A stretch of 64,000 bases of DNA from an uncultured candidatus Brocadiaceae bacterium (GTDB lineage: Bacteria; Planctomycetota; UBA11346): positions 43,317 to 107,316 of the forward strand of contig CAZZAM010000008.1 of the NCBI GenBank assembly GCA_964652775.1, written 5' to 3'. Each line of letters starts with the position of its first letter. Position 1 is the stretch's first letter. Positions 4,426 through 63,148 of the stretch are shown here, in pieces. Position numbers and translations under genes: made by a program. The notes under the pieces are model-generated. The model was not told the origin of the DNA, did no database searches, and saw only the letters and a program-made list of their open reading frames with translations.

Positions 4426-4776
4426 TCATCCAGCACGGAGCCGCCGAATGAGGCACGTGATCTGCCGCCCAACCCGATCAAGATCATCACTAACAACACC
4501 GACTTGTTGAGCATCAATCAAACCGAGATCCGCCGCGATCTGTAATTGAGCAACCAGCTCCGTCACAGAACCGCGAGCGATATCGAGAAAACGCGCAAAA
4601 TCCGCATCAGTCGAACGACCTCGACCTTCGGCAATGTTGGACACAACGCTGGTAGCCGCCCGACGGATCTGATCGCGCAGCGACGGATCACCCGGAATCG
4701 TTGCCGCAAGGCGATAGGCAGCAGTGCATGGTTGTCTGGCGGTCTGATAGACACGCAGATTGGTCAGATTGGACAT
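4426..4776 (-). CDS. four-helix-bundle protein (23S rRNA intervening-sequence protein family)
   Basis: LRVYQ...QIRRAATSVVSNIAEGRGRSTDADFARFLDIARGSVTELVAQLQIA is the typical signature of this family. The start is probably the MSNLTNL Met at 4776. Confidence 0.8.
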   Translation of the reverse strand: MSNLTNLRVYQTARQPCTAAYRLAATIPGDPSLRDQIRRAATSVVSNIAEGRGRSTDADFARFLDIARGSVTELVAQLQIAADLGLIDAQQVGVVSDDLDRVGRQITCLIRRLRAG

Positions 4777-4880
4777 GGTGGATCTCCACCAACCCACCAC
4801 CGGTCGCGCGCAGCGGTCAACCCCGCAGCCGCGTCAGCGGTGCGCGCAGCGCAGGGTTGACGGCGAGCACGAGCGGTACG

Positions 4881-5330
4881 ATGGAATACAACGAGCCGAA
4901 ACCGTCATGGATACCACAAGACAATGGCTCTTGTACCGAAACAATTCACACGCTAGACAATCTCATGATTTTGATAAATGCGAGGTTTATCTTAGGCGGT
5001 AGACCACTGGACGAAGTCATCGGAGAGTTTTATCACATCATTTGTCGCGATGTGTCTCCGTATGAAAACCATGGTGATTACAACCATGACGGCATGATCA
5101 AAGTCATTATTCGCTTACATGGAAACACACAGGACGCGAAAGAGATTATTGGAAAAATCGGCGATCCATTTTGGCAACATGAATGGAAAACGAAACGCGG
5201 CGAGATGGAGCGATCAAGAGACTGCCTTGACGTCATAATAGATTCCAGGAACGAGCTGACCAAAATGAAGGAATTATTCTGGCTCAATGTGTATTGCGAA
5301 GAAAAGGAAACTCTAAAACCGCCGCACTAG
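4881..5330 (+). CDS. hypothetical protein, AT-rich orphan ORF
   Basis: 149-aa ORF starting at the MEYNEPK Met. The track's upstream extension is high-GC and Arg/Ser/Trp-rich, so it is probably not coding. The ORF lies in a ~500-bp block visibly much lower in GC than its flanks. I recognise no domain. Confidence 0.5.
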   Translation: MEYNEPKPSWIPQDNGSCTETIHTLDNLMILINARFILGGRPLDEVIGEFYHIICRDVSPYENHGDYNHDGMIKVIIRLHGNTQDAKEIIGKIGDPFWQHEWKTKRGEMERSRDCLDVIIDSRNELTKMKELFWLNVYCEEKETLKPPH

Positions 5331-5397
5331 AAATCGCTAACTGAAAGTGGTTGACGTTCGTTTTGTGTCCGCAATAGGTTCAGGATTTTCATTGCCC

Positions 5398-5428
5398 CAG
5401 CCACGCTGGAGCGTGGCGTTCCCAGGCC
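5398..5428. repeat. 31-nt hairpin repeat (family I, copy 1)
   Basis: CAGCCACGCTGGAGCGTGGCGTTCCCAGGCC is identical to 40486-40516. It contains a 7-bp stem (CCACGCT/AGCGTGG) with a GG loop and abuts the mutM stop codon at 5430-5432. Confidence 0.85.
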
Positions 5429-5429
5429 T

Positions 5430-6242
5430 TCACTTCTGACACCTCGGACACCACACCGACGCCCGCCCACCAATCACGCGGCCTTTCAGTGTAGATTTGC
5501 ACATCGAACACGCCTGTCCCTCGCGGCCGTAAACCCGGAACGTGTGCTGGAATCGTCCGGACAGTCCGTTGACGTGGCGGAAGTCGTCGATCGATGAACC
5601 GCCGGCGGCAATGGCCTCGGACAACACTTCGCGAATCACACCGACCAACCGTTCGACGCGTGTCTTGGTGATGCGACCAGCGGCGCGCAGCGGATGGATG
5701 CCGGAGCGGAACAAACTCTCGGCGGCGTAGATGTTACCGACGCCAACGACGACCGCCTGATCCATGATCACAGCCTTCACTGGCGCACGGCGATGGCGTT
5801 GGAACGCGCTGAACAAAACATCGGTGTCGAACGCTGTACTCAATGGCTCCGGTCCCAATGCGTCGAGAGCCGGATGCCGATCACCGTGACGCAGCAAATC
5901 GATGAGGCCGAAACGGCGCGGGTCATTGAACACAACGCGGCGGCCGTCCTTCAGTTCCAGAACGACATGATCGTGCATCTTCTGATCACCCTCAGGCGCG
6001 AGCCGCCACACGCCGGTCATGCCGAGATGGCAGAGTAGGCCGGGGCCATCCGTATCGATCAATAGATACTTGGCCCGGCGACGAACCCCCCGCACGGTTC
6101 GGCCGGCCAACTGCGAGGCCAAGTCCCGGGGCATCGGTTTCCGCAGGTCCTTACGCATGGCCCGCGCCCTGGCGATCACCGATCCAGCGAGTAATCGCTG
6201 CAAACCAGCGCGAACGGTCTCGACTTCGGGGAGTTCGGGCAC
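5430..6242 (-). CDS. mutM: formamidopyrimidine-DNA glycosylase
   Basis: PELPEVETVRAGL N-terminus and a C-terminal zinc finger (CSMC...CPRCQ). Fpg needs an N-terminal Pro, so the start is the GTG at 6242 immediately before PELPEVE rather than the track's ATG at 6284. Confidence 0.9.
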   Translation of the reverse strand: MPELPEVETVRAGLQRLLAGSVIARARAMRKDLRKPMPRDLASQLAGRTVRGVRRRAKYLLIDTDGPGLLCHLGMTGVWRLAPEGDQKMHDHVVLELKDGRRVVFNDPRRFGLIDLLRHGDRHPALDALGPEPLSTAFDTDVLFSAFQRHRRAPVKAVIMDQAVVVGVGNIYAAESLFRSGIHPLRAAGRITKTRVERLVGVIREVLSEAIAAGGSSIDDFRHVNGLSGRFQHTFRVYGREGQACSMCKSTLKGRVIGGRASVWCPRCQK

Positions 6243-6325
6243 GGCGGCATGCTCTGTGCTTTGGAGCCAGGGGAAAGCCGACACCAGTTGACCCTCGCGC
6301 CCGCCCTACACACAATGCCCGACGC

Positions 6326-7276
6326 ATGCAATACGCCCTTGAGGCTCTCGCTGACGGTAAGCAACTGCGGATCGATCCGGCGCAGCCGTTATCGCTGAAA
6401 GTAAAACGTCACAACCAGCCCGGCGGTGAGATCCTGGTCGGCCTCAAAGACGGCAAGCTGTACCTGGATAACCGCAGCACGGCGACCTGCATGGTCAACG
6501 ATGTGCAGAAGGCTGCAGCGGCGTTGGCGCAAGGCGATCGCCTCCAGCTGGGCACGTCTGCCTTCATGGTCGTGGCCATCCAGGCGGTCACGGATGTCGA
6601 AGTCGTTGAACCACGCACTGGCAGTGGCGAGCCCGCAAAGCGCGCGCAACCAACCCCGCCTCCAGTGCCGATGACCGCGATGTATCGCACGCCTGCTGGT
6701 GGAACCAAGGTGCCAACGCCGACTCCGGCGGCAAAACCCTCTTCGGATAGCGATCAGTTGCGTAACCAGCGCCGGATCAGCGCCAGTCGGTTGACCGCTG
6801 TTGAGCCCACCTCGACCCAAAGTTCTGGACTGTTGAAGCGCATGTCGGCGGCCTTCACTGGCCGCAATGAACGTCAGCGTCTGGAACAGTTGGAACAAGA
6901 ACGCCGCGCCGCGCTCATCGAATCTGGGCGCCGCAGCCTGGGCGATGGCGGCGGATTCGGCCTGCCGCCAGACGCGATGAGCAAACTACAAAACGACGAA
7001 GCGGTGATACTGACCCAGGCTGATCTCGCTGGCCTAAGCCAATGGCGCACCGATCGGCAACGCCTCGTACGTCTGGATGCTGAAATCGCTGCGCTGCGCC
7101 AAGCCTTGTTCCTGGGTCCCGATCCCGACGCCGTTCTCCTGACCACGCCGACCCTGCGCTCAGACGAACGGGTAAAGACCGACCGAGCATTCGCGACCAT
7201 GGACGAGATCGGCACGCAAGAACTCAGTGGCATGGTTGATAGTGGAAAGCCGCAGAAGGGGACGAAGGGGAAATGA
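6326..7276 (+). CDS. hypothetical protein with divergent FHA-like N-terminal domain
   Basis: YLDNRSTATCMVNDVQ...LAQGDRLQLGTSAFMV resembles the C-terminal half of FHA domains. A Pro-rich linker and a coiled-coil-like RQRLEQLEQERR segment follow. Confidence 0.5.
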   Translation: MQYALEALADGKQLRIDPAQPLSLKVKRHNQPGGEILVGLKDGKLYLDNRSTATCMVNDVQKAAAALAQGDRLQLGTSAFMVVAIQAVTDVEVVEPRTGSGEPAKRAQPTPPPVPMTAMYRTPAGGTKVPTPTPAAKPSSDSDQLRNQRRISASRLTAVEPTSTQSSGLLKRMSAAFTGRNERQRLEQLEQERRAALIESGRRSLGDGGGFGLPPDAMSKLQNDEAVILTQADLAGLSQWRTDRQRLVRLDAEIAALRQALFLGPDPDAVLLTTPTLRSDERVKTDRAFATMDEIGTQELSGMVDSGKPQKGTKGK

Positions 7277-7278
7277 GT

Positions 7279-7428
7279 GAAATGCCAAATGCTGGAATGC
7301 TGGAATGGATGCGGTGAATAAGCACGACTTACCTGACCGAACAAATAGCTCCTCAGCGGCCTATCCGAACACCCAGCGCTGATTTCTAACACATTCAAGC
7401 ATTCCAGCATTCCAGCATTTGGCATTTC
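7279..7428. repeat. octamer-arm hairpin (family A, GGAATGCT words)
   Basis: Left arm 7279-7307 (GAAATGCCAAATGCTGGAATGCTGGAATG) is the perfect 29-nt reverse complement of right arm 7400-7428. The spacer is 92 nt. It lies between the FHA-like gene stop and the permease GTG start. Confidence 0.9.
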
Positions 7429-7452
7429 CCCAAAACGCCCACACTGCGCCTC

Positions 7453-9469: not shown

Positions 9470-9568
9470 GAAATGTCGAATGCTCGAATGTCGAATGCTC
9501 GAATAATTTAAAAGAAACGTCAGCGGCCGATGATTCTCAACATTCGAGCATTCGAGCATTCTACATTC
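9470..9568. repeat. octamer-arm hairpin (family A variant, CGAATGCT/CGAATGT words)
   Basis: Left arm GAAATGTCGAATGCTCGAATGTCGAATGCTCGAAT (9470-9504) is imperfectly complementary to ATTCTCAACATTCGAGCATTCGAGCATTCTACATTC (9533-9568). It lies between convergent genes. Confidence 0.8.
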
Positions 9569-9573
9569 CTACC

Positions 9574-10308
9574 CTACGGCCTCGGCCCTTCCCGCCGTAC
9601 AACCCACGCCTCGGTGCCGTACCGTTCAGCGTGGATTCTTAGCGCAGTTGCCAATTCCGCCGATGTCCACAACCCGGATACCAACGGCAAACCAAGTGCG
9701 GTGCTGATTCCCTCGCAAATCGCCGCCGCGGCGTGGTCCCAACTCAGACCACATCCGCGCACCGCATCGCGATCCCAGGCATTGGTGTCGAGCTTGAGGC
9801 TGCCGTGGAGGATACATCGCTGGCCGCGTACGCGCGCTGCACTGCCCAGGGCTTTGCCGCCATCGGCGTGCACGACGTCGTCTGCAGCAGGACTCGCAAA
9901 ACAGCGCGGTTCGTCGGCATAGCGGCGGTCACCGACCGTATTGGTCTGCAACGACAGCACCGCACCGCGTTGGGCCAGGGAGTTCAATATTGCGCCGTGA
10001 ATCAGCGGATACAGATCACGAGCACGTTTCGGAAATCCGTGTTGATCCAAGACTCCCGCCAAACAGTAGGTCACCTCATGTTCATGCCAAATCGCACCGC
10101 CCCCGGTGATGCGGCGGACCACCGCCGTGCCATATGGCAGGGAGGCAACGATCCCAGCGTAGTCCTGGAAACATCCCAACGACACCGCTCGTGGATTCCA
10201 TCGGTACAGTCGCAGGCTTGGTTCCGTGGCCTCGACCAGCAGCGCCTCATCACGTGCCATTTGTTCAGCACCGTCAGCGGTTAGCTCAGGAAGCAGACGT
10301 ACGCTCAT
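9574..10308 (-). CDS. lipoate-protein ligase / octanoyltransferase family protein (BPL_LplA_LipB)
   Basis: LRLYRWNPRAVSLGCFQ, RRITGGGAIWHEHEVTY and GGKALGSA (the catalytic Lys region) match this family. Confidence 0.7.
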   Translation of the reverse strand: MSVRLLPELTADGAEQMARDEALLVEATEPSLRLYRWNPRAVSLGCFQDYAGIVASLPYGTAVVRRITGGGAIWHEHEVTYCLAGVLDQHGFPKRARDLYPLIHGAILNSLAQRGAVLSLQTNTVGDRRYADEPRCFASPAADDVVHADGGKALGSAARVRGQRCILHGSLKLDTNAWDRDAVRGCGLSWDHAAAAICEGISTALGLPLVSGLWTSAELATALRIHAERYGTEAWVVRREGPRP

Positions 10309-13329: not shown

Positions 13330-13430
13330 TTGTCCACAGATTTCGCAGATTATGCAGATTTTGCAGGCGCATGGTGGCCCCGAACATGTACTTCGCAATC
13401 TGTGCAATCTGCGAAATCTGTGGATAACAA
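13330..13430. repeat. heptamer-arm hairpin (family B, CGCAGAT words, TTATCC terminus)
   Basis: Left arm TTGTCCACAGATTTCGCAGATTATGCAGATTTTGCAG (13330-13366) pairs with right arm CGCAATCTGTGCAATCTGCGAAATCTGTGGATAACAA (13394-13430). It lies between divergent pilT and the dehydrogenase gene. Confidence 0.85.
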
Positions 13431-13537
13431 TCTCGAAATCCCACTCATCTGCGGACCCTGATAACGAACTGAATACTATTAACGCCGCGCAGCGACGGTG
13501 CCCTTGGCACACCTCGCGACAGTCCATAGTCGTACCC

Positions 13538-15792: not shown

Positions 15793-15944
15793 AAGGGCGC
15801 GGCGCAGCGTGGTACTTGCACAAGCGATGGAAGCGGGTTTCAGCTTTCCTGAGAGCGCCGCACTCCCATGCGGCGCGAATCGTGAATACACCAGCAACTA
15901 TACCCATTGCCCCTGGCCGCACAGGGGTGCGGCGCTCCCAGAGT

Positions 15945-17108
15945 TCAGCTCCCGATGCCGAACGCGCGCAGCAGACGACGCTTGAAACCGATCTGGATTG
16001 GGGCAGGTGGCATGGCTCGCGAACGACGACCGCTCGCGTCGTGGTCACGCGCCACTTCGCGACCCAGCCAGGTGCGCAGGTCGGTGACGAACTCAGCAAT
16101 CGTGCCGCGTTCTTCTGGCAAAAACGCCATCGCCCGTTCACTTGCTCGGACTAATCGTGCTGGGGCGGAGGGCGCTTCCTTCGCCAACGGCGGATAGAGA
16201 TTTCCCGCTGCGAGCAGCAACGCCTCCATGCGATCCTGATGATCGAATGGCATGTGTCCCGCGAGGACGTGATAGAGCATGCCGCCGAGCATATGCAGAT
16301 CGGTGTGCGCGCCGACTTCTTCACGTTCTCCGCGTGCGATCTCCGGTGGCACGCAGCCCGGGGTCCCGGCGCACACTGATGGGCAGTGATCAAGGCGCGG
16401 CGCATGCCATTCACCATCAGGACCGGGTGCGAATGACAGGGCAAGCCCCCAGTCCACTACCAACACTTCACCAAATTCACCGACCATCACGTTCTCGGCT
16501 TTGATGTCGCGATGCATGATGCCGCGACTGTGTGCAAACGCGATTGCATCACAGGCTCGTACAATGGCCTCAATTAGGCGCGGTAATTCTTTATCCGAGG
16601 TCCGCTCATTGATGAGTGCCGCCAAACTGCTGCCGCGAACTCGACGCATGACCAGACAGTTATCTGCCGCATCATAGACCGGAACAATATTCGGATGTTC
16701 CAGATACGCCGTGACCAAAGCCTCGGCCCGAAACAGCAGTCGTCGCGTTGGACTGTCATCCTTGCGCTGCACCTTCACCGCGACGTCGCGCGCGAGCGCA
16801 TGCTGGCGCGCCAGCACCACCGTCGCCATACCACCGCCATCAAGCCGTTCATGAACACGGTAGCGACGATTGAATTCGGTAAACGTACTTGTGTCGATCA
16901 CCATTTCAGAAACTGGTAGCGGGGTCCGGCTGCCGCGCCCAGTTGGCTTGGCGAATCCAACCTCAATCGCCTCGACATGATCGGCGGACAACTCAACCGG
17001 CATCATCGTCTCGGTCGCCGTGCGGTCATCAGCCGCAGCGATCACGCTGTCCCACATGCGACTACGCTCGGTATTGGTTGAGCGACGACGATCGCGTACC
17101 GGGGTCAT
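15945..17108 (-). CDS. serine/threonine protein kinase
   Basis: Hanks-type motifs: GGGMATV...VAVKV, HRDIKAENVMV, VVDWGLA and GTPGCVPPE. The start is probably the MTPVRD Met at 17108, because the track start overlaps the upstream gene. Confidence 0.8.
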   Translation of the reverse strand: MTPVRDRRRSTNTERSRMWDSVIAAADDRTATETMMPVELSADHVEAIEVGFAKPTGRGSRTPLPVSEMVIDTSTFTEFNRRYRVHERLDGGGMATVVLARQHALARDVAVKVQRKDDSPTRRLLFRAEALVTAYLEHPNIVPVYDAADNCLVMRRVRGSSLAALINERTSDKELPRLIEAIVRACDAIAFAHSRGIMHRDIKAENVMVGEFGEVLVVDWGLALSFAPGPDGEWHAPRLDHCPSVCAGTPGCVPPEIARGEREEVGAHTDLHMLGGMLYHVLAGHMPFDHQDRMEALLLAAGNLYPPLAKEAPSAPARLVRASERAMAFLPEERGTIAEFVTDLRTWLGREVARDHDASGRRSRAMPPAPIQIGFKRRLLRAFGIGS

Positions 17109-17176
17109 GGGCGGCACTCTAGCCAGGCCGGAGGCCAACTGGTAGTCCTGAAATCTTAGTGCTGTTACACCGCGCT

Positions 17177-18184
17177 TTAGAGCGGAGGAACACACGGCCC
17201 GGTGATCGTGTCGATCGCTGCCAGCTCACTGGCACTAAAAGCCAGGTTTTTCAAGCAACCAAGGTTATCGTCGAGTTGTTCGACCTTGCTGGCTCCGATC
17301 AGCACCGAGGTCACGCGTTGATCCTTGAGCAGCCACGACAACGCCATTTGCGACAGCGTCTGACCGCGAGCACGAGCGATGTCACGCAGTGCTCGGGCCT
17401 GAGCGAGGTATGCCGGGGTCAGCCAGTTAGACTTGAAGCGTTCGCCCATGGCACCGGTCGACGCCGCGCGACTGTCGGACGGAATTGCGCCATCAAGATA
17501 GCGATCACTGAGCAACCCTTGGCAGAGCGGCGAGTAGACAATCACGCCAACGCCATTCGTCTCCGCCGTGGGCAGCAATACTTTCTCGGATTGGCGGAAA
17601 AAGATATTGTAGCGCGGCTGACTGATCGTGATCGGCGCCCAGCCACGACGATCGACAACACCTAGGCAACGCGTGAATACCGGATCGTTGTAGTTGCTGA
17701 TGCCCGCGTACAGCGCCTTGCCCTGACGGACGAGTTGATCAAGCGCACCCAGCGTTTCTTCAATCGGCGTGTCGGGATCGGGACGATGCGAATAAAAAAT
17801 ATCCACGTGATCAACACCGAGCCGCTTGAGCGACTGTTCGCAACTTTCGATGATGTATTTCCGGCTGCCCCAATCGCCGTACGGCCCCGGCCACATGCGC
17901 CAACCAGCCTTCGAGCTGATGACCAGTTCCTCACGTGGCATCTCTTTCAATATCTTACCAAACAGCGATTCGCTGGCCCCAGCAGGTGTGCCGTAGTTGT
18001 TGGCGAAATCGAAGTGCGTGATACCGCGATCAAAGGCGCGGAAATAAATCCGCTTGGCAGTGTCGTCAGCGGTGTAACTGCCGATCGCCTGCCAGCCACC
18101 GAGCGAAACCGCCGGCAGCATCAGTCCGCTGCGGCCGCAGCGGCGATAGGTCATGTGATCGTAGCGGTCGGTGGCGAAGGGCAT
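17177..18184 (-). CDS. aldo/keto reductase (YghZ/Mgr-like)
   Basis: MTYRRCGRSGLMLPAVSLGGW, FDFANNYG, the HRPD region and ISNY are typical of the AKR14/YghZ group. The start is set at MPFATDRY. Confidence 0.85.
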   Translation of the reverse strand: MPFATDRYDHMTYRRCGRSGLMLPAVSLGGWQAIGSYTADDTAKRIYFRAFDRGITHFDFANNYGTPAGASESLFGKILKEMPREELVISSKAGWRMWPGPYGDWGSRKYIIESCEQSLKRLGVDHVDIFYSHRPDPDTPIEETLGALDQLVRQGKALYAGISNYNDPVFTRCLGVVDRRGWAPITISQPRYNIFFRQSEKVLLPTAETNGVGVIVYSPLCQGLLSDRYLDGAIPSDSRAASTGAMGERFKSNWLTPAYLAQARALRDIARARGQTLSQMALSWLLKDQRVTSVLIGASKVEQLDDNLGCLKNLAFSASELAAIDTITGPCVPPL

Positions 18185-19201: not shown

Positions 19202-19382
19202 GGATATCCGCAGATTGCGCAGATGGCGCAGATTTCGATTTCAATTCTGAGTGGCTTGTGAAGCAGCCCTAGCCTCAATGGTATGTGACGGAGCCCTTCA
19301 TAAATTACGATGCCTACACAGGCACTAGGCGGTCAAGATCACGAGCTTCGAAATCTGCGCCATCTGCGAAATCTGTGGATAA
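19202..19382. repeat. heptamer-arm hairpin (family B)
   Basis: Left arm GGATATCCGCAGATTGCGCAGATGGCGCAGATTTCGA (19202-19238) pairs with right arm TCGAAATCTGCGCCATCTGCGAAATCTGTGGATAA (19348-19382), with 20 nt perfectly complementary at the inner ends. The spacer is ~109 nt. It lies between convergent genes. Confidence 0.9.
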
Positions 19383-19440
19383 AAACTCGAAAGATTGCTC
19401 ATCTCCAGATATTCCGACTGTTAACTAAACACCATTGGCC

Positions 19441-26394: not shown

Positions 26395-26484
26395 ATACGA
26401 AAGGATGAAGGCAGAAGGATGAATGATGAAAACGTCCGAGTACCGCCAGTTTTCTTACTTCTGCATTCTTCCTTCTGCCTTTGG
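26379..26484. repeat. hairpin (family F, GAAGGATGAA/GGCAGAAGG words)
   Basis: The left arm (26379-26433) overlaps the last codons and stop of the EamA gene. The right arm is GTTTTCTTACTTCTGCATTCTTCCTTCTGCCTTTGG (26449-26484). The loop contains ACCGCCAG, as in 34045-34100. Confidence 0.8.
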
Positions 26485-34044: not shown

Positions 34045-34100
34045 AAGGAGGAAGGCAGAATGAGGAAAAACACCGCCAGTTTTCATCCTTCTGCCTTCCT
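34045..34100. repeat. hairpin (family F, copy 2)
   Basis: GAAGGAGGAAGGCAGAATGAGGAAAAAC, then the loop ACCGCCA, then GTTTTCATCCTTCTGCCTTCCT. It lies between divergent serS and the M50B-like gene. Confidence 0.85.
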
Positions 34101-34129
34101 ACTTCTGACTTCTCCGTATTCTCTCCCCC

Positions 34130-38315: not shown

Positions 38316-38546
38316 AGGCGGCTGGTTGCTGGCGAAGTTGACTGTTTTAATGGTCTATCGCTCGTCGTCCGCTGAGTGGGACGGCTTATAGGGGTCGTTT
38401 TCTGGCAAGTCAACGTCATTCTCGGCAATTGGTCGTTTAAAGTTAGTTAAATGCCGACAAGTTGACATAGTTTTATGAAATTGAGGACACAACATTGGTC
38501 TATTTGCGTCAATCTGCCCATGGACCCCAAGGGAAATGGCTCCAAC

Positions 38547-39944
38547 ATGCCGCTCATGAGCCAAAGTCGGCTTGTTGCTCGTGATCTCGCTGTCTTGTGG
38601 CACCCATGCAGCCAAATGACGGACTACCGCGACTTCCCGCCACTGGAGGTCGTCAGTGCCTCGGGCTGCCGCATCAAACTGGCCGACGGGCGCGAGATCC
38701 TCGACGCGGTTTCCTCCTGGTGGTGCAAGAGCCTCGGCCACGGCCACCCCGACATCTCCGCCGCGATCCGCGCCCAGCTCGATCGCTTTGAGCACGTCAT
38801 CCTCGCCAACACGACCAGTGAACTCGTCGTGTCGTTTTGTGAGCGGCTGCTTACTGCCGCCAACGCCGGCTTCACGCAACAACCGCGAACCACGAACCGC
38901 GAACCGCGAACCTTCTCCAAAGTTTTCTTCGCCGAGAACGGATCCACCGCCGTCGAGGTCGCGTTGAAGATGGCGCTGCACGCACAAGCGTTGTGGGGCC
39001 ACCCGCAGCGCACGCACTTCGCCGCGTTGTCCGGAGGCTATCACGGCGAGACCGTCGGCGCGTTGTCGGTTGGGGATCTCGGCCTCTACGCTGATCCCTA
39101 TCGCCCGCTGTTATTTCCGTCGCTGCAACTCGGCCCCCTGCCGTGGCGTAGCGGACCCGAAGATCCGCGCTGGCTTGATGCGAGCGCCGAGTGGCCAGCG
39201 ATCGTACACCAATTACAGACGCAGGCGAACAAACTCGCCGCGATCATCTACGAGCCGATTCTGCAAGGCGCCGGCGGCATGCGCGTGGTCAGTCCAGATC
39301 TGCTGACGCGCCTGCGTGCGTGGGCCGACGCGCACGACGTCCTGCTGATCGCCGACGAGATCGCCGCCGGCATGGGCCGTTGCGGCGCGATACTCGCGTC
39401 GCACCTCGCCACCAACGCCCGGCCCGACATCGCCGTCGTCGGCAAGGGCCTCACCGGCGGCACACTGCCGCTCGCGTGTACGCTCACGACCCAGCGCATC
39501 TATGACACGTTCCTGGGAACATGGGCTGAAAAGCGGGCATTTCTCCACTCAAATACGTTCGCCGGAAATGCCCTCGCGGTCGCAGCGGCCAACGCGGTGC
39601 TGACGGTGTTTGAGCGCGATCGGATCTATGAGCGGGCTACAGAGACGGGCAAGCGGATGCGTTTGGCACTTGCCGACCTCGCGCGCACACGTCCGTGGAT
39701 CGCCAACGTGCGCGGTGTTGGCATGATGGCAGCGTGCGACCTGCGGCGGCGTGATGGATCACCACTTGATCCTGCAGCGCGGACTGGCTTTCAGGTGTAT
39801 CGCGAGGCCGTGCGACGCGGAGCGTTACTCAGGCCGTTGGGGGATACGATGTATGTGATGCCGCCGCTCAATACAGGATGGGGTGACATCGAACGCATGT
39901 TAGTGATTTTAGCCGACAGCACAGATTCGATTGTGAGCCACTGA
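38547..39944 (+). CDS. bioA: adenosylmethionine-8-amino-7-oxononanoate aminotransferase
   Basis: LWHPCSQM, SSWWCKSLGHGHP, GYHGETVGALSVGD, ADEIAAGMGRCG and VGKGLTGGTLPL (PLP Lys) are typical of BioA. The start is among the Mets at 38520, 38547 and 38556. Confidence 0.9.
   Translation: MPLMSQSRLVARDLAVLWHPCSQMTDYRDFPPLEVVSASGCRIKLADGREILDAVSSWWCKSLGHGHPDISAAIRAQLDRFEHVILANTTSELVVSFCERLLTAANAGFTQQPRTTNREPRTFSKVFFAENGSTAVEVALKMALHAQALWGHPQRTHFAALSGGYHGETVGALSVGDLGLYADPYRPLLFPSLQLGPLPWRSGPEDPRWLDASAEWPAIVHQLQTQANKLAAIIYEPILQGAGGMRVVSPDLLTRLRAWADAHDVLLIADEIAAGMGRCGAILASHLATNARPDIAVVGKGLTGGTLPLACTLTTQRIYDTFLGTWAEKRAFLHSNTFAGNALAVAAANAVLTVFERDRIYERATETGKRMRLALADLARTRPWIANVRGVGMMAACDLRRRDGSPLDPAARTGFQVYREAVRRGALLRPLGDTMYVMPPLNTGWGDIERMLVILADSTDSIVSH
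38881..38912 (+). repeat. intragenic tandem heptamer tract (AACCGCG x ~4.5) inside bioA
   Basis: AACCGCG AACCACG AACCGCG AACCGCG AACC, read directly. It is translated in frame as part of ...QQPRTTNREPRTFS..., at a position where BioA sequences I recall (E. coli, B. subtilis) have only a short loop. Confidence 0.8.
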
Positions 39945-39965: not shown

Positions 39966-40478
39966 ATGACTTTTCCCAGCCTGAAGACACAAATATCATT
40001 GTTAAACCGCGCAGAATATCGATACGACCTACTCGTTTCCAACTTTGCAGAACACTACCTTGAATTAACGCGTGCTAATTACGAACCACGACCAGATATT
40101 GCCGTCTTCACAAATTGGCTACGTCACCTGCATTGTGATATTCGTCCTTCGCTTCTGAATGCATGGGAAGGAATGGCCTCACACTTCGGCTTTGCCCTTG
40201 GGGATAAAATCACTTTGGGTCCCATCACTCTCTACGCCATTCGACTATCCTGCTATCCGTTGGAAGAGATTGTACGCATCGAGGGAATCGCAGCGAAGAA
40301 GGATGGTAAGCCATCGCAGTCGATGCTCACACTCGCTGTTTCAGAGCACTCGCAGATCCAAAGACACGAACAGAAAGTTGGCAAAAACGTTCTTGAACCA
40401 CTCTTGTTCCCTGGGACCACCAGACTCGCAAATGTCCGAAAATTTATTGAAGACGCTACTGCTGGATTGTCGAAATAG
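39966..40478 (+). CDS. hypothetical protein, AT-rich orphan ORF
   Basis: 170-aa ORF in a ~520-bp block visibly lower in GC than the flanking bioA and alaA. No domain recognised. The family I repeat follows 8 nt after the stop. Confidence 0.5.
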   Translation: MTFPSLKTQISLLNRAEYRYDLLVSNFAEHYLELTRANYEPRPDIAVFTNWLRHLHCDIRPSLLNAWEGMASHFGFALGDKITLGPITLYAIRLSCYPLEEIVRIEGIAAKKDGKPSQSMLTLAVSEHSQIQRHEQKVGKNVLEPLLFPGTTRLANVRKFIEDATAGLSK

Positions 40479-40485
40479 ACACGCG

Positions 40486-40516
40486 CAGCCACGCTGGAGC
40501 GTGGCGTTCCCAGGCC
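40486..40516. repeat. 31-nt hairpin repeat (family I, copy 2)
   Basis: CAGCCACGCTGGAGCGTGGCGTTCCCAGGCC is identical to 5398-5428. Confidence 0.85.
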
Positions 40517-40569
40517 GCTGGAACACAGATAAATATCGGGTAGCTTCCCACCCTTCCCCGAAGGTTCCC

Positions 40570-41799
40570 ATGACCCTGCAGCGTATACCCACCTCCGATT
40601 CGCTCGCCAACGTCCGCTATGAAATTCGCGGGGCGCTGGCTACGCGTTCGGTTGAGCTGGAGCGGCAGGGACACCAGATCATCAAGATGAACGTGGGGAA
40701 TCCCGGTCTGTTCGGGTTCCGTGCGCCGGATAACATTCAGCGCGCGATCGCCGCGAGTCTGCCACAGTCCGATCCATATTCGCACCAGAAGGGCATCATG
40801 CCCGCGCGCGAGGCGGTGGTGAAGCAGCAGCACCAACGCGGTGTGACCGACGTGACCACTGATGATGTGTTCATCGGTAACGGCGTGTCCGAGTTGATCC
40901 TCATTTGTCTGCGCGGCCTGCTCAGTGCTGGTGACGAAGTATTGATCCCCAGCCCTGACTATCCGTTGTGGACGGCTGCGACCACGCTGGCCCTCGGCAA
41001 GGCGGTTCACTATCCGTGTCGGCGCGAGAACGGTTACGTGCCCGATCCAGCCGACGTTGCGAAGCTGGTCACGCCGCGCACGCGGGCGATCGTTATTATT
41101 TCACCGAACAATCCGACCGGCGCGGTGTATCCAAAAGCCGTCATCGAACAGCTCGTCGCGATCGCTGAAGAACGCGGCCTGGTCGTGTTCTCGGACGAAA
41201 TCTACGACGACATCACCTACGATGGCGCGGTCCACACGCCGGTCGCAACGGTGTGCAAGCAGACGCTGTGCGCGACCTTCGGCGGTCTGTCGAAAGTCTA
41301 TCGCTCGTGCGGCTACCGCGTCGGCTGGGTGTCGTTCAGCGGCGCGAAGGCTGCGGCGAAGGATTACATGGCCGCGCTCGATTTGCTGTGCGCGCTCCGG
41401 CTCTGTTCGAACGTGCCAGGACAATTCGCGGTCGCGCCTGCGCTCAACGAAAAATCTTCGATTGGCGAATTGATCAAGCCCGGTGGACGCCTCTACGAGA
41501 CGCGCCGCGCGGTCATCGACGGTCTCGCGAAGTCGAAGTTGTTTGAAACCGTGACGCCGGCTGGCGCGCTGTACGCGTTCGTTCGCCTCAAGCCCGGTCT
41601 GCTGCCTGGCTTTGACGATCAGAAATTCGCCTTCGATTTGCTGGAGAAATACCACATTTTGGTCACCCCCGGCAACGGCTTCAACGTGCCCTACCGCGAC
41701 GGCATCCGACTGACCCTGTTGCCCGAAGCGGCGACCATGACCAAGGTAATCGCCACTCTCGATGAGGCCGCGACGGCGTATGCAACTGCCGCCCGCTGA
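40570..41799 (+). CDS. alaA: PLP-dependent aminotransferase, AlaA/YfbQ (alanine aminotransferase) family
   Basis: NVRYEIRG...IIKMNVGNPGLFGF, SPNNPTG and GGLSKVYRSCGYRVGW (the SK..R PLP-Lys region). The start is the MTLQRIP Met at 40570; the track's 40159 start runs through the orphan ORF and repeat I2. Confidence 0.8.
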   Translation: MTLQRIPTSDSLANVRYEIRGALATRSVELERQGHQIIKMNVGNPGLFGFRAPDNIQRAIAASLPQSDPYSHQKGIMPAREAVVKQQHQRGVTDVTTDDVFIGNGVSELILICLRGLLSAGDEVLIPSPDYPLWTAATTLALGKAVHYPCRRENGYVPDPADVAKLVTPRTRAIVIISPNNPTGAVYPKAVIEQLVAIAEERGLVVFSDEIYDDITYDGAVHTPVATVCKQTLCATFGGLSKVYRSCGYRVGWVSFSGAKAAAKDYMAALDLLCALRLCSNVPGQFAVAPALNEKSSIGELIKPGGRLYETRRAVIDGLAKSKLFETVTPAGALYAFVRLKPGLLPGFDDQKFAFDLLEKYHILVTPGNGFNVPYRDGIRLTLLPEAATMTKVIATLDEAATAYATAAR

Positions 41800-42238
41800 C
41801 GCTCACCAACGCGCTGAGGCCGAACGGATTCTCAATCTGTACGGCGGGAATCCGCAGGGCCTCGCGAAAGCGCTGGAGCTGCTGCACAGTCAATTCGCCA
41901 CCATGCAGGCGCGCACGCAGTTGCTGCTGACCTTGGCCACGATCACCATGACGATCACCGGCTTTTCCGGCCATCAGATGGCCAAGAGTGGTTTCTTCGC
42001 CTCGCTGGCGATGGCCGTCGGCCTGATCTGCGTCCTCGTCTCGGTGCTTTTGATGATGGCAAGTCTGCGCGTGCATTGGCTCAGTCAGTTCGATGAAGGT
42101 GATCCAGTTGCGACCGTTGCTGCAATAATTTCGTACCGCGACAGCAAAACCTGCCGCTACCGAATTCAGATTACTCTGCTCGCGTCAGGACTTGCGTGTT
42201 ACGTCGCTGCGGTCGTGGCGTATTTGATCGCGCCGTAG
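41780..42238 (+). CDS. hypothetical 3-TM membrane protein
   Basis: About 152 aa: a soluble N-terminal helix (ELLHSQFATMQARTQ), then two adjacent TM helices and a third C-terminal TM after SYRDSKTCRYRI. It overlaps the alaA 3' end by ~20-38 nt depending on the start. Confidence 0.4.
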   Translation: MQLPPADAHQRAEAERILNLYGGNPQGLAKALELLHSQFATMQARTQLLLTLATITMTITGFSGHQMAKSGFFASLAMAVGLICVLVSVLLMMASLRVHWLSQFDEGDPVATVAAIISYRDSKTCRYRIQITLLASGLACYVAAVVAYLIAP

Positions 42239-45494: not shown

Positions 45495-45555
45495 GAATGT
45501 CAAATGCTGGAATGCTGGAATGCTGGAATGCTGGAATGACGAATACGCGAATGTC
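45495..45555. repeat. solo octamer-arm array (family A) without a clear inverted partner
   Basis: GAATGTCAAATGCTGGAATGCTGGAATGCTGGAATGCTGGAATGACGAATACGCGAATGTC. Only a single GAGCATTC word lies downstream. It sits between divergent ileS and the next gene. Confidence 0.75.
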
Positions 45556-45623
45556 TCAACTGGCGACTCGCCACGGAGCATTCGCCACTGGTGCAAAGGC
45601 ATAAGCATGATCATGCTGCGCCC

Positions 45624-46631
45624 GTGCGCTGGATTCTTCTTCTCTGTGCTGTTTGCCTTCTGTCGGCTGTCGACATGCCGCCGAGTCCGTCCACCGTACC
45701 CGGCATCCGCATTTGGCCGAATCCCAGCATCACGCATTGGCCGGCGATCGCGATTGAGGGCGAGACGCGCAACGTCGCGTTCAGTATTCCGGTCAAGCAG
45801 CCCGGCGCGAAGGCCGAGTTGGGCTGGGAGGGCGACAAGCCGATCGAACTCACCCTGCCGAAAGATGCCGAGCGCGCGAGCGGCCTCATGGATCTCGCGT
45901 TGAAACCGGGTGTACGCAAACTGCGCATCGCGCTGGCCGATGTTGATCAGCGTCTGCCGATCCGGGTCGTCGATGCGATCGGGGTATGGCCACTTGCTCG
46001 CTTGATCGACGGCTATCCGGTCGATGCGGCCGGCGTGCCGGTGGTGCTGCTGGATCATCAACGACCGGCCGGTGGCGAACGCACGTGGGCCATGCTCAAA
46101 GACGAACTACCGCGACCGAGCGGACGCGCGCTGATCGTCGGCGATCCACTGGCTGCGATGGGCGCAACCGCGTGGGACGGACTCGATGCTGACACACGGC
46201 CAGCCACCGATCTCATCAAACCGCATCACGCGTGTCTGGTCGCCTTGGCCAAACTGCCCGATCCCCTGCCGCGCAGCATCATCTGGTGCCCAGGCAACGG
46301 CGCGATCCGGCACGGCGAACCCGACCCCGAGGAGGTTCGCTTGATTGCCGTCCTGCGCACCCGTTTTGAGGCTATGGGCGTGCGACCCATCCTATTCTTG
46401 GCACTGCCCCCGCTCCCGGTCGAGGCTCATCTGCAAACCGCCAACCAACGCCGACGTGAAGACCTCATTGCCGAGGCCGACCGCTGTGGCTGGAAGTGCC
46501 TTGATCTCGCCCACGCCGCCGGACCCGCCGATGCCGCCAATCGCGTCGGCAATCAGGCCTTTACCACCTACCCCTTGGGCCAAGCCCAGGCCAGGATGCG
46601 GGAACTACTGGCGATGGCCTTGGGGAAGTAG
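45624..46631 (+). CDS. hypothetical secreted protein (C-terminal half weakly SGNH-hydrolase-like)
   Basis: A GTG at 45624 gives the signal peptide MRWILLLCAVCLLSAV. The C-terminal half has ALIVGDPLA and IIWCPGNG blocks reminiscent of SGNH folds but without the GDS Ser. Weak. Confidence 0.4.
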   Translation: MRWILLLCAVCLLSAVDMPPSPSTVPGIRIWPNPSITHWPAIAIEGETRNVAFSIPVKQPGAKAELGWEGDKPIELTLPKDAERASGLMDLALKPGVRKLRIALADVDQRLPIRVVDAIGVWPLARLIDGYPVDAAGVPVVLLDHQRPAGGERTWAMLKDELPRPSGRALIVGDPLAAMGATAWDGLDADTRPATDLIKPHHACLVALAKLPDPLPRSIIWCPGNGAIRHGEPDPEEVRLIAVLRTRFEAMGVRPILFLALPPLPVEAHLQTANQRRREDLIAEADRCGWKCLDLAHAAGPADAANRVGNQAFTTYPLGQAQARMRELLAMALGK

Positions 46632-46636
46632 GCGCA

Positions 46637-46774
46637 AAATGTCGAATGCTGGAATGCTGGAATGCTGGAATACCGCAGGTGACCGACGTTTGGTAGACCC
46701 TGCCAAGGAAGTCAGAGCCCCGATCCCCATTCGAACATGCCAGCATTCCAGCATTCCAACATTTGAGGCATTCC
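46637..46774. repeat. octamer-arm hairpin (family A)
   Basis: Left arm AAATGTCGAATGCTGGAATGCTGGAATGCTGGAATA (46637-46672) pairs with right arm CATTCGAACATGCCAGCATTCCAGCATTCCAACATTTGAGGCATTCC (46728-46774). Confidence 0.85.
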
Positions 46775-46811
46775 CTACCCGGTACTTGCCGTCACCGGAC
46801 CCTCGAGTAGC

Positions 46812-49647: not shown

Positions 49648-49739
49648 TTTATTGTCCGCAGATTTCGCAGATGACGCAGATTTCGAAGTGTGTATTTCTT
49701 GCTGCTTCGACCTGCGAAATCTGAGTAATCTGCGGATAA
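49648..49739. repeat. heptamer-arm hairpin (family B)
   Basis: Left arm TTATTGTCCGCAGATTTCGCAGATGACGCAGATTTCGAAG (49648-49687) pairs with right arm CTTCGACCTGCGAAATCTGAGTAATCTGCGGATAAC (49704-49739). The spacer is 16 nt. It lies between convergent genes. Confidence 0.85.
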
Positions 49740-51422: not shown

Positions 51423-51465
51423 GGGCGGAACCGTATGGGGGTGGTGGGAACGGCAAGGAGGGGAA

Positions 51466-51632
51466 GGAATGCTGGAATGCTGGAATGCTGGAATGCTGGA
51501 ATATCGAGGAAATTTGGGGATTCTCGACTCCATCGATAGCATCGAAGGATGCCACCGAACATCGGCACGTCATCGAAATCCTCAACCAAGCTCAGACTAC
51601 TGCTCTCGGACATTCCAGCATTCCAGCATTTC
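51466..51632. repeat. octamer-arm hairpin (family A)
   Basis: Left arm (GGAATGCT)x4 + GGAATA (51466-51503) pairs with right arm CATTCCAGCATTCCAGCATTTC (51611-51632). The spacer is ~107 nt. It lies between the divergent ABC ATPase and bamA. Confidence 0.85.
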
Positions 51633-51691
51633 TCATCCCCCCCAACCATACCCCTTGGGCCACCATGAAGCCCCGTTAGCATCCCGCTCCC

Positions 51692-57434: not shown

Positions 57435-57655
57435 TCAGCGGCCCGCCTCCCGCGCGCTGTACCGATAGAGCACCAACCCTGATAAAATCTTGGGCGCGAA
57501 GAACGTACTCTTCTCCGGCATGACGATGTCGGGATTACTGCGGCCGGCGTCGGCGACGGCCATCAACTCGGCGATCGACACCGGATGCTGGGCGGTAGCG
57601 AGGTCATATTTTCCGGCATCTACTGCTTCTTTCATCTTCGCCATCTCCCATTCGG
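57435..57655 (-). pseudogene. detached duplicate of the 3' end (~73 codons plus stop) of the DUF1015 gene
   Basis: Colinear with 60673-60895. By hand alignment there are ~24 substitutions and no indels in ~222 nt. The peptide ...AEWEMAKMKEAVDAGKYDLATAQHPVSIAELMAVADAGRSNPDIVMPEKSTFFAPKILSGLVLYRYSAREAGR compares with ...AEWELAKMKEAVDAGKYDLAIALHPVSIAELMAVADAGRSNPDIVMPEKSTFFAPKILSGLVLYRHSARAAGR. Confidence 0.8.
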
Positions 57656-57785
57656 CTCAACCACCCGTGCAATAACAGATAACATACGGCAACTTTGGAC
57701 GCCTAGTTTATACTCGCCGAGCATGTACGACTCGTCGTTAGCTCCTTCGCCGCACTAGATCCACATCGTCACCACGAGGCTCACC

Positions 57786-60620: not shown

Positions 60621-60657
60621 TTCGAAATCATCTCCATCTGCGCAATCTGTGGATAAC
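60621..60657. repeat. solo right arm of family B at the edge of the inserted block
   Basis: TTCGAAATCATCTCCATCTGCGCAATCTGTGGATAAC. No matching left arm lies upstream, because the DegT coding sequence ends at 60606. Confidence 0.75.
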
Positions 60658-60672
60658 CCTGCGAATGTATGC

Positions 60673-61845
60673 TCAGCGTCCAGCAGCCCGTGCGCTGTGC
60701 CGATAGAGCACCAACCCTGACAGAATTTTCGGCGCGAAAAACGTGCTCTTCTCCGGCATGACGATGTCGGGATTGCTGCGGCCAGCGTCGGCGACGGCCA
60801 TCAATTCGGCGATCGACACCGGATGCAGGGCGATGGCGAGGTCGTATTTCCCGGCATCGACCGCTTCTTTCATCTTCGCCAGCTCCCACTCGGCGTAGTA
60901 GTCGAAGTGCTTGGGATCCTTGATCATCGCGTGGGTGAGACCCAGAACCGGATACAGTTCGCGTTCCAGAATCGCGCAGTCGAGGCTGCCGCGCGGATCA
61001 GTGGGAACAGTCTTGGCCTTCAGCGCAAAGCAGCCGCTCTTGTGGTAGATGCGGAACTCGCGGTGCGGCGGTGTGTCCCAGGTCGCGGGCGTGAGTTGCA
61101 ACTGTGCTTTGATTTCAGTGAATAATTTCACGCCGGTGACAAGGCGGTTGTAGGCCTGGATCGCAGCGCGTTCGACGACGTAGGCCAAGCAATGGCTCTG
61201 CCCGCCAAGCAAGGCTGCGTGATAGCGATGATGGCCATCAGCGATGTAGAGGGGGTTCTGTCCGACCAAACGCTGCAACTGCTGGCCGTCAGGCGAACTC
61301 TCGGGGACCAGGAAGATGCGACTCGCGATGCCGTCAAGATCGTTGAGACCTTTGAAGTCGCTGATGAAATCGTAGTCGGGCTTGTGCGACGAGGCGATCT
61401 TGTGAAGCACCGGCGTGATCGGCGAGCGGGTGAGCAGGAACACCGGCTCCAAGGTGACGCCGGTCTGCTTAGTCAGCTTCAAGCGGCCCTGCACTTTTTC
61501 GTCGAAGACCTTTTCGTGACGAATGACTTGGCCGGCGGGATAGTCGGACACTTCGACCGCAGCGAAAACGCCAATGCGCGACTGCGCTCCTTTGGCTGAC
61601 TGCCAACGCTGCTCATAGACGATAAAATGCGGTTTATCGAGCGGTTTGAACGAGCCGTTGGTCAATCGCTTGAGTGACCCAAGCGGATCGGGGCCAAGCG
61701 TCACGTGCCAGAGATTGTCCGGCTCGGACTTGAGCAACGCCTCCAGCGGCGAACCCTCGCGAATGACGTCGTACGGTGGCGCAGTGACGCGAACGACGGC
61801 CGCTGAGGAGGGAATATGGCCCGTAAGGCCGGCGATCTGGGTCAT
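60673..61845 (-). CDS. DUF1015 domain-containing protein
   Basis: 390 aa. ...VTAPPYDVI..., IADGHHRYHAAL and C-terminal MPEKSTFFAPKILSGLV are typical DUF1015 blocks. Confidence 0.8.
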   Translation of the reverse strand: MTQIAGLTGHIPSSAAVVRVTAPPYDVIREGSPLEALLKSEPDNLWHVTLGPDPLGSLKRLTNGSFKPLDKPHFIVYEQRWQSAKGAQSRIGVFAAVEVSDYPAGQVIRHEKVFDEKVQGRLKLTKQTGVTLEPVFLLTRSPITPVLHKIASSHKPDYDFISDFKGLNDLDGIASRIFLVPESSPDGQQLQRLVGQNPLYIADGHHRYHAALLGGQSHCLAYVVERAAIQAYNRLVTGVKLFTEIKAQLQLTPATWDTPPHREFRIYHKSGCFALKAKTVPTDPRGSLDCAILERELYPVLGLTHAMIKDPKHFDYYAEWELAKMKEAVDAGKYDLAIALHPVSIAELMAVADAGRSNPDIVMPEKSTFFAPKILSGLVLYRHSARAAGR

Positions 61846-62856: not shown

Positions 62857-62972
62857 CGAGGAACGGCTCCTGGGGAAGCCGGGATCCTATGACCGATGAT
62901 GGGCCGGAAAGGGGGAGAATCGCCTGGGAGCGCCGCACCGGTGCGGCTAACATTAGGTTAGAAATAGGGCTT

Positions 62973-63077
62973 GAATGGCGAATGCTCGAATGGCGAATGC
63001 TCGAATGGACACTGAAAAGGCCAAATGCGATCAATTTTCGACATTCGAGCATTCAAACATTCGCGCATTCGACATTC
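62973..63077. repeat. octamer-arm hairpin (family A variant, CGAATGCT/CGAATGG words)
   Basis: Left arm GAATGGCGAATGCTCGAATGGCGAATGCTCGAATGG (62973-63008) pairs with right arm CGACATTCGAGCATTCAAACATTCGCGCATTCGACATTC (63039-63077). It lies between divergent accD and the SH3b gene. Confidence 0.8.
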
Positions 63078-63148
63078 TCCTGCGCTCCCAGGTGGCGCAT
63101 TGCACCCCCGTCCACCGCTCCTAACTTGCGCGTTTCCAGGAGCTTCCC

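Follow-up and report, generated by a model that had tools for sequence, protein, structure and literature searches.

Two low-GC genes and the hairpin that follows them

The DNA analysed here is a single stretch of 64 kb (the window), with a mean GC content of 0.597. All of its called genes except two have GC contents of 0.55-0.65 and GC3 values of 0.60-0.78. The two exceptions, ORF1 and ORF2, are the only genes with a GC3 near 0.5, and they coincide with the two lowest-GC 450-nt intervals. The sequence-only reading had described them as the only two strongly AT-shifted coding blocks, and the GC/GC3 profile bears this out. Both genes are located between conserved genes, as had also been recognized, and are followed by an identical short repeat. 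The features at the two sites are as follows; REP is the family to which we assign the repeat below, and R2 is a covariance model of the REP unit that was used to scan the window.

4426-4800, minus strand: 23S-rRNA-IVP four-helix protein, neighbour of ORF1
4881-5330, plus strand: ORF1, low-GC orphan gene, 149 aa (GC 0.436, GC3 0.507)
5331-5397, plus strand: AT-rich spacer from the ORF1 stop to the REP, of which the last 9 nt are CATTGCCCC (5389-5397)
5398-5428, plus strand: copy 1 of the 31-mer, REP singlet (27-nt core at 5400-5426; 46.7 bits with R2)
5430-6284, minus strand: Fpg/MutM, neighbour of ORF1 and of copy 1
38475-39944: class-III aminotransferase (bioA-like), with ORF2 starting 21 nt after its stop
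39966-40478, plus strand: ORF2, low-GC gene, 170 aa (GC 0.470, GC3 0.468)
40486-40516, plus strand: copy 2 of the 31-mer, REP singlet (27-nt core at 40488-40514; 46.7 bits with R2)
40517-40524, plus strand: partial inverted REP tail GCTGGAAC, which pairs with GTTCC(C)AG in the fold
40570-41799: class-I/II aminotransferase (alaA-like; JGI name, alanine-synthesizing transaminase)

Searches of Pfam, NCBIfam, PHROG and PADLOC revealed no domain in either ORF, and a direct comparison showed that the two sequences are unrelated; on both points the earlier description was correct. For ORF1, no relative other than itself was found among 5.8 billion proteins, and its single-sequence AF2 model was all-helical with a pLDDT of 37, and hence unusable. 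An 8-nt direct repeat, GGTTGACG, brackets this gene (4855-4862 and 5349-5356; rough chance probability ~0.1); the pair may represent a target-site duplication or a chance occurrence. Because both ORFs are GC and GC3 outliers, the ORF2 family is cassette-borne and of lower GC than its surroundings (see below) and ORF1 lacks any homologue, the two genes are presumed to be independent horizontal acquisitions, the foreign origin of ORF1 being likewise presumed.

A search of the whole window located the exact 31-mer CAGCCACGCTGGAGCGTGGCGTTCCCAGGCC at the two listed positions, both on the plus strand, and no third copy within 3 mismatches (0 expected by chance). The identical hairpin reported after each ORF therefore exists in exactly two copies, with measured distances from the stop codons of 67 and 7 nt in place of the 65 and 8 nt first given. 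Sequence identity between the two sites ends sharply at the edges of the 31-mer. The repeat folds into a 7-bp stem with a 4-nt TGGA loop (-8.9 kcal/mol as DNA, z = -2.6), and the unit can be written as 5'-GCCACGC-TGGA-GCGTGGC-GTTCCCAGG-3', in which stem, loop and the tail GTTCCCAGG form the 27-nt core. It is as GC-rich as the host, whereas ORF1 and ORF2 are not. Both copies are intergenic singlets. Copy 1 ends 1 nt short of the Fpg stop codon (5430-5432, minus strand), and is therefore as much the 3' neighbour of Fpg as that of ORF1; copy 2 lies 53 nt ahead of the alaA-like start. The GCTGGAAC sequence directly after copy 2 may be the remnant of a second REP unit placed tail-to-tail with it, an arrangement that was observed for complete units in one metagenome contig (L023).

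The window derives from metagenomes of Hainich groundwater (well H51), of which three replicates, each assembled independently, contain the same sequence together with the repeat. The exact 31-mer was absent from 185,579 GTDB representative genomes, Rfam searches of the window and of ten REP loci gave nothing relevant, and a literature search returned no match to the hairpin sequence.

A REP family native to the host and linked to RAYT

The 21-nt core of the repeat, GCCACGCTGGAGCGTGGCGTT, occurs exactly in 50 metagenome contigs, compared with ~0.5 expected, and in one viral contig, which is negligible. The contigs carrying an exact core of 21-27 nt (L014-L063) have GC contents of 0.56-0.73 and were derived from soils, freshwater and marine sediments and microbial mats; exact conservation across such varied contigs is wider than expected for a REP family. 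The unit is polar, consisting of GCC[AC/GG/AG]GC-TGGA-GC[GT/CC/CT]GGC and a one-sided tail G[T/C/A]TCCC[A/G]GG, and of 110 hairpins, 93 carry the tail on one side and lack it on the other. Three stem variants are related by compensatory changes, although the hairpins compared had been picked for perfect stems and the pairing statistic is circular. At roughly half of the metagenome loci, two units form an inverted doublet, CCTGGGAGC-GCCGGGCTCCAGCCCGGC-(~7 nt)-GCCACGCTGGAGCGTGGC-GTTCCCAGG. According to crude gene calls, the metagenome sites are intergenic and mostly lie between tandem or convergent genes.

In two contigs such doublets bracket both ends of a RAYT-like gene (L062, 1063-1869; L032, 3936-4928), and partial versions of the arrangement were found in L026 and L015. 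The gene reached 89 bits (cut-off 80) on the NCBIfam model NF047646, which represents the REP-associated tyrosine transposase, and its product also matches Pfam Y1_Tnp and PDB 4ER8 (E. coli TnpA-REP). The RAYT link was seen in the metagenome contigs only, with no RAYT gene within the 64-kb window. Since doublets of the same family flank a RAYT gene, the 31-mer is, by its sequence relationships, a singlet REP unit of a REPIN/RAYT-type family. By analogy with E. coli TnpA-REP, a Y1 (HUH) RAYT would recognize the hairpin and its tail on single-stranded DNA.

Diverged members of the family were identified elsewhere in the window, which contains, in 64 kb, the two exact copies and about four diverged units at two further sites:

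15848-15942: diverged REPIN-like doublet, CCTGAGAGC-GCCGCACTCCCATGCGGC, 41-nt spacer, GCCGCACAGGGGTGCGGC-GCTCCCAGA
62923-63092: REP unit CCTGGGAGC-GCCGCACCGGTGCGGC with an opposing tail GCTCCCAGG (R2, 23.5 and 10.8 bits)

The two halves of the doublet were detected on opposite strands (R2, 25.2 and 15.9 bits) and have GCCGCAC/GTGCGGC stems; 2 nt separate the end of the doublet from the stop codon of a minus-strand gene (15945-17195). At the other site, the REP tails lie on either side of an AT-rich element composed of octamer arrays in inverted arrangement. In view of these diverged units and the doublet, the REP family is best regarded as native to the host genome. This is also supported by the host-like GC content of the REP and by the 9-mer CATTGCCCC, which is located directly 5' of copy 1 and also, within the spacer of the 15.9-kb doublet, directly 5' of its right unit (a score reached by 0.4% of 2000 shuffles).

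Several additional repeats were observed in the window:

7272-7434, 9472-9575, 45495-45558, 46629-46778, 51452-51645 and 62959-63084: intergenic elements in which tandem octamer arrays, (AATGCTGG)n...(CCAGCATT)n, are paired in inverted orientation across 50-100-nt spacers, one of them being that framed by REP tails (62923-63092)
13330-13446, 19204-19401, 49652-49688 and 60621-60675: inverted intergenic arrays of a second short tandem motif family (CAGATTTCG / CAGATGRCG and complements)
57435-57656 and 60673-60894: 222-nt direct repeat (89% identity), copy 1 in a 445-nt intergenic gap and copy 2 overlapping the 3' end of a minus-strand ORF (60673-61845)
26442-26481 and 34072-34111: 40-nt repeat ACCGCCAGTTTTC..TTCTGCC.. 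(85% identity) in two intergenic gaps

The closest known system is that of REP, BIME and REPIN elements with their RAYTs in E. coli and Pseudomonas fluorescens (PMC3116915, PMC3337134, PMC3479197, PDB 4ER8), in which the inverted-doublet architecture was named REPIN by Bertels and Rainey (PMC3116915, PMC3337134). The family described here shares with it a short GC-rich palindromic hairpin, a conserved one-sided tail, an extragenic position at the 3' ends of genes, inverted doublets with the potential to fold into one long hairpin, repeats on both sides of a cognate Y1 transposase gene (in metagenome contigs) and singlets that correspond to broken doublets. On the other hand, the sequence of the unit is new, its tail being G[T/C/A]TCCC[A/G]GG and not the GTAG of E. 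coli REPs. In contrast to classical lineage-specific REP families, its 21-27-nt core is exact across contigs that differ in GC content and come from many habitats. Compared with typical REP systems, the density in this window is low, and no RAYT of this genome was seen.

ORF2 relatives, integron cassettes and attC sites

ORF2 has 13 homologues of ~170 aa with 47-60% identity. The family is tiny, with 22 clusters in a profile search of 1.84 billion representatives, and its members occur in attC-bounded arrays in five of seven independent contexts:

L001; L002/3 with a 114-kb JGI contig; L007/8; L148; L149: arrays of small same-strand ORFs with canonical attC (GCCTAAC...GTTAGGC)
L004-6; L147: lone copies of an ORF2 relative (two of the seven contexts), no attC

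As no integrase was seen with these arrays, they are of the CALIN type. The GC content of the ORF2-family gene is below that of its locus in every context, and at the DNA level the window is homologous to the cassette copies only as far as the ends of the ORF. The relatives carry attC sites or nothing, and a REP was never found after any of them. Judging from these homologues, ORF2 has strayed from a cassette-borne gene family and is present here as a lone copy without its attC. An AlphaFold model built from a 14-sequence alignment (pLDDT 95.4, pTM 0.88) predicts a small barrel of five strands together with a long helical hairpin and two helices at the C-terminus. No neighbour above a TM of 0.35 was found for this model in PDB or BFVD (viral); the best was the Pelota N-domain (TM ~0.3).

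The attC sites of integron cassettes are bounded by two inverted core sites, R'' (RYYYAAC) and R' (GTTRRRY), and form imperfect hairpins of ~57-141 nt with L'' and L' boxes. An integron integrase is required for a complete integron and not for a SALIN. A covariance model, R1, was trained on nine attC sites taken from the arrays around the ORF2 relatives. It scored 34-108 bits on those arrays, and the attC sites that it recovered, whether or not they had been used for training, ranged from 28 to 108 bits. At either island R1 found nothing, and its best score in the window (19.7 bits) was within a TPP-enzyme coding region lacking AAC/GTT.

These data bear on the proposal that the two sites are integron cassettes, in which each ORF would make up one cassette with its hairpin and an integron integrase would act on the 31-mer as a short attC-like site, as in a SALIN. 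Several observations speak for it: the ORF2 relatives are genuine cassettes in attC arrays, a low-GC ORF with a GC-rich hairpin resembles the pattern of those arrays, the REP tail opens with GTT, and an inverted AAC...GTT core is present in the doublet. Moreover, one attC site (L002:11-112) aligns with the flank of the second site at 33 of 41 positions. Nevertheless, we regard this proposal as hardly credible. No AAC-containing R'' partner is present upstream of either 31-mer copy, the hairpin measures 18 nt compared with 60-100 nt for the attC sites found here, the core is GTTCCCA and not GTTRRRY, R1 is silent at both islands, and the REP family is linked to RAYT. In addition, ORF1 has no cassette relatives, the similarity of the L002 site to the second flank is absent from its sister attC sites, and no IntI-like sequence was detected in the window (tblastn, E <= 1, with IntI1 as the query). 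The sequence-only reading had itself noted the missing integrase and the shortness of the repeat, and both remarks hold; its attC-like interpretation of the hairpin does not. Its broader cassette idea survives for the ORF2 family, which is cassette-borne, and fails for ORF1, which has no relatives, and for the hairpin, which is not an attC. Likewise, a role of the repeat as part of the cassette conflicts with the ORF2 relatives, all of which carry the ORF without a REP.

The L002 attC site, which belongs to an array with an ORF2 relative, contains a REP-like sequence, CGCTGCAGCCAACGCGGGATGGCGCTCCCAGTTCCGCT (17.7 bits with the REP model); its 33/41 alignment is with window positions 40481-40521, and none of 1000 shuffles reached the score. 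Neither this match nor the 8-nt repeat around ORF1 alters the conclusions. A decayed attC after ORF2 was also considered, and an alignment by eye was suggestive, but R1 gave nothing there. A CRISPR repeat was dropped as a candidate, no array being present.

In comparison with CALIN and SALIN elements and attG insertions (bioRxiv 10.1101/2022.09.11.507474), the ORF2 family similarly consists of promoter-less small ORFs between attC sites, and ORF2 in the window resembles a SALIN in standing alone as a low-GC insert with housekeeping genes on both sides. The islands differ from integron cassettes in having no attC, a hairpin that belongs to a REP family, no integrase that could be found and, in ORF1, a gene without cassette relatives.

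How foreign genes and REP singlets may have come together

The explanation that we favour overall, with modest confidence, is that the 31-mer is a REP singlet and that the two ORFs are independent foreign genes, inserted into or beside spacers already occupied by REPs. Insertion at REP-bearing spacers is probably the link between the hairpin and the foreign genes, so that the repeat-targeted insertion raised as an alternative in the sequence-only reading is the part of it that best accounts for the juxtaposition. Foreign DNA would integrate into or beside intergenic spacers holding a REP or REPIN, where structure favours recombination and selection is permissive. The doublet would be broken in the process, and the surviving half would be left abutting the insert as a singlet. 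As a by-product, each foreign transcript would acquire a REP stem-loop at its 3' end, a position from which REPs have a known stabilizing or insulating effect on upstream mRNA. Insertion is favoured because DNA insertion into REPINs has been named as a source of singlets and REPs as insertion targets (PMC3116915).

The two copies are oriented alike with respect to their ORFs, and at each site the low-GC DNA adjoins the hairpin side of the unit. Within the window the coincidence is notable. The window contains ~33 gaps of at least 60 nt, and by post hoc arithmetic the probability that two copies would fall into the two specified gaps is ~0.002, or ~0.01 if all four REP-bearing gaps are counted. 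The distance from the junction of foreign DNA and REP to the hairpin is at least 11 nt at one site vs. at most 2 nt at the other. An R2 scan did not find the missing REPIN half at the left edge of either island, so that a simple insertion into a doublet would need an accompanying deletion. A 13.8-bit R2 match in the bioA-like coding region was considered as the lost half and judged spurious. The two singlets are perfectly conserved, contrary to the decay expected of singlets (PMC3116915).

The flanks of REPs in metagenome contigs generally have the GC content of their contig and are not AT-shifted, which indicates that an attraction between foreign DNA and REPs is no general property of the family. 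Together with the ORF2 relatives that never carry the repeat, this largely refutes the cassette idea on the terms set at the outset, as the family is mostly found away from AT-rich ORFs. One partial exception was observed at L047:3014-3522 (also in L016 and L021), where a REP singlet lies 32 nt beyond the stop of a 151-aa HTH_3/Phd-like ORF. The ORF is located in a mildly low-GC stretch of ~1.8 kb, and represents a third accessory small ORF with a REP singlet, on an unrelated contig.

Comparison with related loci was also carried out for the second site. The relatives of alaA in GTDB genomes have at most 63% identity and none has an adjacent bioA; in the closest metagenomic relatives (72-74%), the upstream gene differs from one to the next and a REP is absent. 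In all relatives (L144, L145, L150), alaA and an overlapping downstream ORF of 144-152 aa (window 40570-42238) are kept together. Upstream of alaA, the window has the bioA-like gene and ORF2, and the relatives have a 254-aa unknown protein, MutS or acetyltransferases. Because each relative has a different gene at this position, the junction upstream of alaA is, on comparative sequence grounds, a recurrent synteny breakpoint. Neither an empty site nor a strain variant that would show whether the REP or the island came first was recovered among GTDB and metagenomic relatives.

A less probable but serious alternative is that no mechanistic link exists, REPs having settled later in the new 3' spacers or simply sharing permissive gaps with the foreign genes. 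Most metagenome REPs of the family do lie in ordinary intergenic gaps without an AT shift, the perfect conservation of the two singlets fits a recent insertion, and with four REP-bearing gaps among the ~33 in the window, coverage of both islands could be fortuitous. However, the post hoc probabilities given above are still small, the shared polarity with foreign DNA against the hairpin side recurs in both copies, and both copies are singlets, although the replicative unit is the doublet (PMC3116915). A bolder version of the insertion scenario is that, where a genome has no integron platform, integron-type cassettes and other small foreign genes use REP hairpins as landing pads. In single-stranded form, the REP stem and the GTT at its foot would then resemble an attC or attG partner; a cassette such as ORF2, once excised, would be captured directly 5' of the REP and lose its own attC, and the 33/41 match between the second site and the L002 attC, as well as the AAC...GTT core of the doublet, would be traces of such exchanges. 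We consider this version improbable.

Selection on the hairpin itself, as an insulator or terminator that stops read-through into alaA or antisense transcription into fpg, or that tunes the foreign mRNA, appears improbable. It would agree with the position of both copies 7-67 nt past stop codons and with the known effect of REPs on mRNA stability (PMC3479197), yet it leaves the identity of the hairpin as a REP of a RAYT family unexplained. The stem is followed by GTTCCCAGG and not by a T-run, so it is not a canonical intrinsic terminator, and a plus-strand terminator scan made no call at the hairpin. Even less probable, in our opinion, is that ORF and REP formed a PATE- or IS200/IS605-like unit with the REP as its 3' end, moved in trans by a Y1 transposase. 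RAYTs are indeed relatives of IS200/IS605 transposases with hairpin-end substrates (PMC3116915), and both islands carry their REP at the same end and with identical polarity. The objections are that neither island has a left-end hairpin or REP-like unit, the REP is absent from all ORF2 relatives, its composition is that of the host and not of the islands, and the junction distances are unequal at the two sites. The resemblance to IS200/IS605 elements and PATEs therefore lies in hairpin-defined ends recognized on single-stranded DNA by a Y1 HUH transposase, the protein family of RAYTs; the islands differ in that each has a single hairpin, the unit contains no transposase, and neither a target nor a left end is conserved. 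With respect to REPs as targets of insertion sequences and recombination hot spots (cited in PMC3116915), the favoured insertion into or beside REP spacers is similar in that foreign DNA abuts the REP and the doublet is destroyed, and dissimilar in that the inserts are single small genes without a recognizable IS or recombinase.

What seemed to be a novel cassette system is thus a recognizable family of the REP/REPIN-RAYT type, and a low-GC ORF followed by a GC-rich hairpin can mimic the architecture of an integron. The analysis also reveals a cassette-borne protein family with a confidently predicted and so far unmatched fold that occurs outside integrons. The REP unit and its RAYT are now defined, and the unit is common, base for base, to many uncultured bacteria of soil, sediment and groundwater. 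With two clean cases and one weaker case of foreign genes abutting REP singlets, REPs could, if the pattern is general, mark integration hot spots.
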